The notes: generated by a model from the letters alone, not told the origin. A stretch of 64,000 bases of DNA from an archaeon (GCA_009992215.1 JAACWB010000004.1:8006-72005), one strand, 5' to 3'. Counted from the first letter of the stretch, positions 8,764-10,841 are shown. Numbers and translations: made by a program.

Positions 8764-9774
8764 TTGCAGTATAGTAATATGGAAAAGAGGAGTAAATTTA
8801 CTTTTATTGATTTATTTGCAGGAATTGGAGGTATTCGTTTAGCTTTTGAAAAAGCAGGTGGAAAATGCATCATGAGTTCTGAATGGGATGCTTATGCACA
8901 AAAAACATATTTAGAAAATTTTGGGGAAATTCCTTTGGGAGATATTTCAAAAATTAATGAAAAAGATATCCCAAACCATGACATATTGTGTGGAGGTTTT
9001 CCTTGCCAAGCTTTTTCTATTGCGGGAAAAAGAAAAGGATTTAATGATATCAGAGGCACTTTATTTTTTGAAGTTGCTAGAATAATTAAAGAAAAAAAGC
9101 CGAAGGCAATTTTTTTAGAAAATGTTAAGGGACTAATAAATCATGACAAAGGAAAAACTTTAGCTACAATTCTTGATGTTTTAAGAAATGAATTGGGATA
9201 TTATGTTACAGAGCCTCAAATTATGAATGCAAAAGATTTTGGATTAGCTCAAAATAGGGAAAGAGTTTTTATTGTTGGATTTAGAAAAGATTTGGGAATA
9301 AATTCTTTTTCTTATCCGAAGAAGAAAATTAAACCAGTTTCTTTTGAAGAAGTTATGGAAGAAAAACCAGTTTCTCCGAAATATTATTTGTCTACTGTTT
9401 ACTTAAATACATTAAAGAAACATAAGGATAGACATGTTAAAAAAGGTAATGGGTTTGGGTATCAAATAATTGATATAAAAGATATTGCTAATGCTATCGT
9501 AGTTGGGGGAATGGGGAGAGAAAGAAATTTAATAATTGATAAGAGACAAAAAAATTTAATTCCTATAACAAATATCAAAGGTTCCATAAATAAAAAAGGA
9601 ATTAGGAGAATGACCCCGAGGGAGTGGGCAAGATTACAAGGGTTTCCAGATTCTTTTAAAATTCCTGTTTCTGATGCTCAGGCCTATAAACAATTTGGAA
9701 ATTCTGTTGCAGTTTCAGCCATATATGCTACTGCGAAAGAGATAATTAAACATTTAGATAATAAATTAAAATGA
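8764..9774 (+). CDS. DNA (cytosine-5)-methyltransferase, M.HpaII-like
   Basis: 336 aa. Motif I FTFIDLFAGIGG, motif IV GGFPCQAFSIAGKRKG, motif VI IFLENVKGL, motif X QFGNSVAV. Overall collinear resemblance to the CCGG-specific M.HpaII group, judged from memory of that family. Confidence 0.9.
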   Translation: MQYSNMEKRSKFTFIDLFAGIGGIRLAFEKAGGKCIMSSEWDAYAQKTYLENFGEIPLGDISKINEKDIPNHDILCGGFPCQAFSIAGKRKGFNDIRGTLFFEVARIIKEKKPKAIFLENVKGLINHDKGKTLATILDVLRNELGYYVTEPQIMNAKDFGLAQNRERVFIVGFRKDLGINSFSYPKKKIKPVSFEEVMEEKPVSPKYYLSTVYLNTLKKHKDRHVKKGNGFGYQIIDIKDIANAIVVGGMGRERNLIIDKRQKNLIPITNIKGSINKKGIRRMTPREWARLQGFPDSFKIPVSDAQAYKQFGNSVAVSAIYATAKEIIKHLDNKLK

Positions 9775-10841
9775 AAACTGGAAATAAGGGAGAATGGAGT
9801 GAGTTACTTGTTTTCTTAAAGTTATTATCTGAAGGTAAATTATATGCTGCAGATTCTAAGTTAAATAAAATTGAAGATATTTATTATCAAATAATTAAAA
9901 TTTTGAGAAATGATTCTAGTGACAAAAAAGAATACTATTATGATTCAAAAATTAAGATAAAAGATTCTAAAGGTTTTATTTTAGAAGAAGTGCCAGTTTA
10001 TGAATTTAAAAAAAATGCAAAAATTTTACTTAATAAAATTCAAGAATCAAAAGGATCTTTCTCAATTGATATTTTAGAGAATTTTTTGAAAAAAATAAGG
10101 ATTTCTAAAATAAAATCTAACTCTACAAATAAAAGAGACATCTCAATGGTTGTTCATGATCCACAAGCTGGTTATGAACCAGAATTAGGATTCAGTATTA
10201 AATCCCAACTTGGGAGTCCTTCAACTTTGTTAAATGCTGGCAAAACAACCAATTTTATTTATGAAATAAGGAACATAAATTTTACAGATAAGCAAATTGA
10301 TGAAATAAACAAATTATCTCAAATTAGAGATAAAATTGAAAAGATTAAGTCTCTTGGTGGAAAAATAAATTATTTTGATATGAGGGAAAATAACTTTAAG
10401 TTAAATTTACAAGTTATCGATAGTCAATTTCCTTTGGTCGTTTCTGAATTAGTCAGAAATTTTTATGAGAATGGAATTAATAAAATATCTGATTTAATTG
10501 AAAAAATTGTCGAGAAAAACCCTTGTTCATTTAATCAAAAAAATTTTCATAAATTTTATAAAATTAAAATAAAGAACTTTTTAATTGCTGTTGCTTTGGG
10601 AATGATTCCTTCTAAAGTTTGGGATGATGAGTTTGATGCAACTGGGGGATATATTGTAGTAAAAGAAAATGGAGATGTTTTATGTTATCATGTTTATAAT
10701 AGAGAACAATTTGGAGATTATTTATTGAATAATACAAAATTAGAAACTGCGAGTACTTATAGACATGATTTTGGAAAAATTTACAAGAAAAACAAAAAAT
10801 TTTTCTTAAATTTGAATTTGCAAATTAGATTTATTAAATAA
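9771..10841 (+). CDS. putative type II restriction endonuclease cognate to the upstream m5C methyltransferase (R.HpaII-like by size and context)
   Basis: 356 aa. Start overlaps the methyltransferase stop (ATGA), indicating translational coupling. Size matches R.HpaII (about 358 aa). No universal nuclease motif can be asserted from sequence alone. Confidence 0.5.
   Translation: MKTGNKGEWSELLVFLKLLSEGKLYAADSKLNKIEDIYYQIIKILRNDSSDKKEYYYDSKIKIKDSKGFILEEVPVYEFKKNAKILLNKIQESKGSFSIDILENFLKKIRISKIKSNSTNKRDISMVVHDPQAGYEPELGFSIKSQLGSPSTLLNAGKTTNFIYEIRNINFTDKQIDEINKLSQIRDKIEKIKSLGGKINYFDMRENNFKLNLQVIDSQFPLVVSELVRNFYENGINKISDLIEKIVEKNPCSFNQKNFHKFYKIKIKNFLIAVALGMIPSKVWDDEFDATGGYIVVKENGDVLCYHVYNREQFGDYLLNNTKLETASTYRHDFGKIYKKNKKFFLNLNLQIRFIK

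Follow-up and report, generated by a model that had tools for sequence, protein, structure and literature searches.

Two adjacent genes of a DPANN archaeon very probably form a functional Type II restriction–modification (R-M) system of the HpaII family, arranged as a compact 2.1-kb cassette in which the methyltransferase (M) gene precedes the endonuclease (R) gene. They lie in a 64-kb stretch of DNA, hereafter called the window, that was analyzed over its whole length; the features discussed here are listed in table 1. The pair is already known in kind and annotation. Proteins identical to M and R are present in GenBank under these family names, as NCN86248.1 ("DNA cytosine methyltransferase [archaeon]", 331 aa) and NCN86249.1 ("HpaII family restriction endonuclease [archaeon]"), respectively. 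Protein of this pair also occurs in sequencing runs SRR6053076 and SRR29616066.

Judging from its gene content, the host is a tiny DPANN archaeon of the Pacearchaeota/Nanoarchaeota group. The region upstream of the cassette contains a gene for threonyl-tRNA synthetase (ThrRS) with an archaea-specific editing domain, whose best named relatives, labeled "Nanoarchaeota archaeon" and "Candidatus Pacearchaeota archaeon", show 65–74% identity to it, and the GC content of the window is 0.29. An earlier note, based on the DNA sequence alone, had described the pair as a complete m5C R-M system of HpaII-like CCGG type, belonging to an AT-rich archaeon. This description is borne out by the archaeal ThrRS, the low GC content, and the full-length matches of the two proteins to PF00145 and PF09561, together with their respective identities of 68% and 45% to the prototype.

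Table 1. Positions of the HpaII-family gene pair and nearby features in the window
Feature	Position	Strand	Size or properties	Basis
Three copies of motif AAAGCTTCGCTTGATTTG	7579–7710	+	18 nt, relatively GC-rich; intergenic, between ThrRS and transglutaminase-like genes	
Transglutaminase-like protein gene	7708–8718	+	336 aa; N-terminal hydrophobic segment	PF04473 (weak, E = 3.7e-06)
Mobile two-gene cassette	8731–10841	+	2.1 kb	Extent set by cross-genome homology
Putative archaeal TATA box, TATAAAAA	8750–8757	+	22–29 nt upstream of ATG 8779	Positional conservation
M ORF, TTG start	8764–9774	+	336 aa	ORF calling
C5-cytosine DNA methyltransferase, M.HpaII-like	8779–9774	+	331 aa; CCGG methylation predicted	PF00145, TIGR00675, P15446 similarity
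ATGA start/stop overlap	9771–9774	+		Read from sequence
HpaII-family Type II restriction endonuclease	9771–10841	+	356 aa; ATG start	PF09561, PADLOC, R.HpaII similarity
tRNA-like element	11648–11714	+	GC 0.58; 7-bp acceptor stem; canonical T arm TCGGG-TTCAATT-CCCGA	

Family Assignment of the Two Proteins

The methyltransferase (MTase) matches PF00145 over the complete profile (positions 1–324 of 324; E = 3.7e-107, 358.9 bits against a cut-off of 22) and TIGR00675 with an E-value of 7e-102 (341.4 bits, cut-off 100.65). In enzymes of this type, motif I (FxGxG) binds S-adenosylmethionine and motif IV (PCQ) contains the catalytic cysteine (Cys). Six motifs were found in canonical order, namely FAGIGG (I), GFPCQAFS (IV), ENVKG (VI), QNRERVF (VIII), TPREWARLQGF (IX), and QFGNSV (X), all of which are invariant over 33 homologs. 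The prototype M.HpaII of Haemophilus parainfluenzae was identified by exact look-up (UniRef100_P15446, "Type II methyltransferase M.HpaII"), and alignment of the window MTase with it over 327 aa gives 68% identity and two gaps of one residue each. Both the canonical motifs and the collinearity with M.HpaII that the earlier note had reported were thus recovered, the latter including the target-recognition region.

The endonuclease (REase) was assigned to RE_HpaII (PF09561; E = 1.1e-125, 420.1 bits against a cut-off of 25), its residues 5–354 covering profile positions 1–359 of 359, and matches the PADLOC model REase_II with an E-value of 1.3e-98. PADLOC labeled the pair as MTase_II plus REase_II. 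Aligned along its full length (361 columns) with R.HpaII, which is encoded by the ORF adjoining M.HpaII in H. parainfluenzae, the window REase shows 45% identity with 67% positives (E = 4e-105). The earlier note had matched the 356-aa ORF to R.HpaII from its size and position, and the sequence similarity bears this out.

Many close homologs of the MTase (~70% identity) are single polypeptides of 539–562 aa that carry an N-terminal Vsr mismatch-endonuclease domain (P0130, P0138, P0149, P0154, and others), one such fusion being labeled Methanimicrococcus. Other homologs have an N-terminal helix-turn-helix (HTH) domain (P0128). Beside these Vsr- or HTH-bearing proteins, the window MTase is a minimal form.

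Start Codon, Gene Overlap, and Putative Promoter

ORF calling extends the M gene upstream to a TTG codon. The ORF from 8764 given in the earlier note does exist, but translation probably begins at the downstream ATG and the TTG is an unlikely start, because the two closest archaeal homologs start at the codon that aligns with this ATG, whereas the TTG is not conserved, and because the GenBank product of 331 aa begins at the same ATG. At the junction of the two genes (AAAATGAAAA), the MTase stop codon TGA occupies 9772–9774 and the REase ATG 9771–9773. An ATGA overlap of this kind fits a coupling of R translation to that of M.

We aligned the sequences that precede the M gene in the three closest archaeal cassettes. 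The sole invariant block in all three was TATAAAAA, which is found at a constant distance from the aligned ATG. This octamer occurs 20 times in the window versus approximately 27 expected, so that the motif by itself is not rare. As it is common in an AT-rich window, its interpretation as a TATA box rests on its conserved position and not on its occurrence. We infer that TATAAAAA is an archaeal TATA box and that the M-R transcript is leaderless or near-leaderless. No controller (HTH) gene was found in the window.

A plausible mode of action can be proposed for the pair. A single archaeal TATA promoter would probably produce a leaderless bicistronic mRNA for both genes, and the ATGA overlap would couple translation of R to prior translation of M, so that protection would be established before restriction. 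With the Cys of its PCQ motif as the catalytic residue, the MTase would transfer a methyl group from S-adenosylmethionine to position 5 of a cytosine in CCGG. The endonuclease, presumably Mg2+-dependent, would cleave viral or plasmid DNA that enters the cell with its CCGG sites unmethylated. In the prototype HpaII system, the inner C is methylated and the cut is C^CGG. We also infer an antiviral role of the pair.

Distribution and Transfer of the Cassette

R-M systems have been found in about 72% of archaeal genomes (PMC12988326), and those of archaea are described as highly similar to bacterial ones and as taken up horizontally from a common pool (PMC10609329). At least 580 species-representative genomes contain relatives of the HpaII family. 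Bacteroidota, Gastranaerophilales, and Clostridia account for most of the best 80 genomic loci, two of which are archaeal; 32 viral contigs also carry the family. The M-then-R order is present in 68 of these best 80 genomic loci and in 31 of the 32 viral loci. A Vsr gene was found within 4 kb of the pair in 18 of the same 80 genomic loci and 20 of the 32 viral ones; the DPANN cassettes, that of the window included, have none. Among loci L010–L121, an accompanying Vsr is far more common on viral contigs than in cellular genomes.

The closest REases show 76% (Candidatus Pacearchaeota), 64%, and 61% identity to the window protein, followed by a plateau of approximately 50–55% that includes many bacteria and some Promethearchaeota. 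In a neighbor-joining tree, built without support values, four DPANN-type REases form one clade: those of the window, of the Pacearchaeota locus L001/L010, of the archaeal contig L004, and of P0003, which is known only from a 1.6-kb contig. Another archaeal group, containing Promethearchaeota and an uncultured archaeon, branches apart from this clade, and the tree suggests that the HpaII family entered archaea at least twice. The view that the system is of clearly bacterial type and mobile thus holds in part: the family is bacterial only in its majority, with at least two separate archaeal clades, but mobility is supported by the occurrence of the cassette in three genomes with unrelated flanks.

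The two closest DPANN cassettes are those of Candidatus Pacearchaeota (MCK4997356.1, L001/L010) and contig L004, whose R proteins are 76% and 61%, and M proteins 83% and 81%, identical to those of the window. Nucleotide comparison (blastn) with L001 revealed 78% identity from position 8731 of the window to exactly 10841, and comparison with L004 revealed 72% identity over 8783–10834. The two cassettes resemble that of the window in this DNA similarity, which runs throughout, in the common TATA box and start codon, and in the lack of vsr. They differ from it in an M/R overlap of 8 nt, in a higher host GC content (0.34–0.37), and in their neighborhoods, which are wholly different; in each of the three genomes, the flanks are unrelated and the neighboring genes are not the same. 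By these comparisons, the pair travels among archaeal genomes as a tight 2.1-kb cassette. Neither repeats nor an integrase or transposase bounding the cassette was found. Apart from adding one more case of DPANN archaea sharing the bacterial Type II R-M pool, as surveys state (PMC10609329, PMC12988326), these data point to a distinct archaeal HpaII subclade that travels as a self-contained cassette with a putative archaeal-type promoter. Beyond correct annotation the significance is slight; the HpaII family is very common.

We also considered whether the cassette is maintained mainly as a selfish addiction module, moving between DPANN genomes and kept by post-segregational killing rather than by any antiviral benefit. 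Its compact and self-contained form, its own putative promoter, the unrelated flanks in three genomes, and the presence of the family on 32 viral contigs are all in keeping with this idea, as is its AT content, which in every host exceeds that of the flanking DNA. However, synonymous divergence between the copies is saturated, which implies that no transfer has been recent, and no transposase, integrase, or att repeats adjoin the cassette. Maintenance by addiction is also compatible with a defense role and does not exclude it. We regard it as improbable that addiction is the main reason for the presence of the cassette.

Base composition was of little help in dating its arrival. The codon usage and GC3 of M and R match those of the other long ORFs in the window, from which the earlier note had concluded that the genes were fully ameliorated and hence either old or derived from an AT-rich donor. 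The cassette and its flanks have GC contents of 0.270 and 0.292 here, 0.289 and 0.343 or 0.324 and 0.374 in the other archaeal cassettes, and 0.320 and 0.392 in Haemophilus. Across 71 loci, the GC content of the REase gene ranges from 0.24 to 0.40 and is on average 3.8 points under that of the flanks, the Haemophilus gene behaving likewise. Since the HpaII family is AT-rich in every host, AT-richness says little on when the genes were acquired; amelioration of codon usage was therefore rejected as a means of dating, and the conclusion drawn from it is weak.

Predicted CCGG Specificity

M.HpaII is specific for CCGG (PMC5389614). The similarity between the window MTase and M.HpaII is continuous through the variable target-recognition region (TRD) between motifs VIII and IX, which is nearly as conserved among 33 family members as the catalytic motifs. 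TRD blocks shared by the two proteins include KYYLST, KGNGFGY, and ANAIVVGGMGRERNL. CCGG is the best prediction for the specificity of the pair, given the 68% identity of M to M.HpaII, TRD included, and the 45% identity that R shows to R.HpaII from end to end.

An identity of 45% between the REase and R.HpaII leaves some room for a changed specificity, and the pair might belong to the same family and yet have come to recognize a sequence different from CCGG. The position of the archaeal clade apart from all characterized members would also allow such drift. Against it are the high conservation of the MTase TRD relative to M.HpaII, with long identical blocks such as KGNGFGY, ANAIVVGGMGRERNL, and MTPREWARLQGFPDS, and the need for the specificities of R and M to covary. 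As far as is known, the other characterized HpaII-family members also cut CCGG. The target of R.HpaII itself, an enzyme listed as subtype P,E, is given as C'CG,G (PMC2441816). A shift away from CCGG is accordingly very unlikely, and CCGG remains the preferred assignment.

Integrity of the Endonuclease

To assess selection, dN/dS was computed between the three archaeal cassettes. The values were 0.07–0.10 for M and 0.135–0.156 for R, with dS of 1.2–2.6, at which synonymous sites are saturated. Estimated in this way, both genes are under purifying selection and have been functional over a long divergence, and low dN/dS over saturated dS argues against a decaying endonuclease. The REase also retains all of the 41 columns that are invariant in a 120-sequence alignment, including E11, K121, D123, D130, S142, and K144. 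Catalytic residues are likely to be among the invariant E11, D123, D130, S142, and K144. Overall, the pair is intact and both enzymes are probably active.

Archaea commonly carry orphan or "persistent" MTases (PMC10609329), and CCGG is not avoided in the window. Both facts would suit a locus in which the endonuclease is inactive, the R gene is decaying, and M acts as a solitary epigenetic methyltransferase. We consider this very unlikely, as the R ORF is of full length with its 41 invariant residues in place, its dN/dS is approximately 0.14 over saturated synonymous divergence, and its AlphaFold2 (AF2) model is confident. It is just as unlikely that, in an obligate nucleotide-scavenging episymbiont, the REase helps to digest unmethylated host-derived DNA for salvage, TatD DNase, thymidine kinase, and pyrimidine nucleotidase also being encoded in the window, or that the MTase acts on the host genome, in the way proposed for a nanohaloarchaeon whose MTase is exported (PMC11001535). 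A functional R-M pair remains the preferred reading.

Although HpaII-type enzymes have long been in use, we know of no experimental structure for any of them. HinP1I and MspI are monomeric Type IIP enzymes of the PD-(D/E)XK class that generate 5'-CG overhangs, and the target of HinP1I is G^CGC. The layout of the HpaII family, with an acidic residue in the N-terminal helix followed by D-X18-S-x-K across a beta hairpin, presumably recalls the HinP1I active site. The AF2 model of the window REase has a pLDDT of 92.7, and its top structural match was HinP1I; the match was nonsignificant (TM-score 0.19–0.25), and the model has no clear neighbor in the PDB. HinP1I and MspI show no detectable sequence similarity to the HpaII family even by profile search and belong to other Pfam families; HpaII-family proteins are ~110 residues longer, with extra beta-rich regions at the N- and C-termini, and HpaII is listed as subtype P,E, unlike these Type IIP enzymes. 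PF09561 has been assigned to PD-(D/E)XK (PMC3424549). R.HinP1I, a PD-(D/E)XK enzyme of known structure, has been regarded as a possible structural clue to R.HpaII, and both were said to cleave C'CG,G (PMC2441816).

Comparison with the HpaII Prototype

The HpaII R-M system of H. parainfluenzae, for which Kulakauskas et al. 1994 is cited in PMC2441816, shares with the window both protein families and the M-then-R order with overlapping codons. The M and R proteins have 331 and 356 aa here and 358 and 358 aa in the prototype, the window MTase being without the ~28-residue N-terminal extension of M.HpaII, and the overlap between the genes is 4 nt instead of 8 nt. The expression signals of the window pair appear archaeal-type, with a conserved putative TATA box, unlike those of the prototype. 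The H. parainfluenzae locus consists of vsr, M.HpaII (358 aa), and the RE_HpaII protein (358 aa), with vsr located upstream and overlapping M. The window has no such gene: tblastn with four Vsr domains yielded no Vsr in the 64 kb (best E-value 0.27), and the H. parainfluenzae Vsr as query had no match within ~4 kb of the cassette. Absence of a Vsr partner that the prototype possesses is a point against the main reading. As the distribution above shows, the prototype's vsr gene is optional in the HpaII family.

Frequency of CCGG and Other Sites

CCGG occurs 38 times in the 64-kb window; shuffled sequences predict 28.4 occurrences and a Markov model 36.4. Site avoidance was considered as a mark of long residence of the system and was rejected on these counts, to which a 64-kb window gives little power; the lack of avoidance speaks neither for nor against activity. 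The deamination products of CCGG, CTGG and CCAG, are merely 1.16-fold above expectation. The earlier note had argued that CCGG sites would be rare in such a genome and that foreign DNA would be cut preferentially. This argument fails, since CCGG is about as frequent as the Markov model predicts and discrimination between self and foreign DNA is set by methylation and not by site frequency.

GATC is strongly under-represented in the window (49 vs. 119.7 expected, ratio 0.41, z = −6.5). The ratios of TTAA (0.84), TATA (0.83), and CCWGG (0.63) are reduced as well; the count of CCGG agrees with expectation. A search of the window for a GATC-specific MTase or REase yielded none, and the cause of the GATC shortage may lie elsewhere in the genome or with the host or a virus.

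Genomic Neighborhood

Neighboring genes encode aminoacyl-tRNA synthetases and a membrane protein that resembles transglutaminases, besides small unknown ORFs; the remainder of the window contains genes for thermosome, ribosomal protein L16, aminoacyl-tRNA synthetases, TatD, thymidine kinase, and nucleotidase. When the 62 other ORFs of the window were searched with PADLOC and Pfam, no further R-M or recognizable defense genes emerged, the matches being limited to housekeeping genes plus generic helicase, radical-SAM, and TatD proteins. With housekeeping neighbors and no other defense gene among the 62 ORFs, a defense island was rejected. Separately, the presence of TatD DNase, thymidine kinase, and pyrimidine 5'-nucleotidase genes fits a reliance of DPANN archaea on scavenged nucleotides.

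Downstream of the cassette is a tRNA-like element, which the earlier note took as the end of a lineage-specific block. The element is real and well folded (MFE −28.2 kcal/mol, z = −3.5) but lacks a normal cloverleaf: on one reading the D arm is stunted and the "anticodon" loop has 17 nt, and on the other the D arm is normal and the anticodon arm truncated. Neither ARAGORN nor the Rfam tRNA model called it a tRNA; its best Rfam match was the tRNA-like mascRNA model, at 29.3 bits and hence under the gathering score of 42.5. No direct repeat of its 3' end was found flanking the cassette. An island bounded by this element was therefore rejected, as there is no att repeat, cross-genome homology stops at the REase stop codon, and the element is confined to contigs of the same organism.

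The transglutaminase-like gene directly upstream of the cassette has no counterpart at the corresponding site of the two other archaeal cassettes. In the intergenic region that precedes it, the three copies of AAAGCTTCGCTTGATTTG show 78–100% identity and are spaced by 28 and 86 nt.
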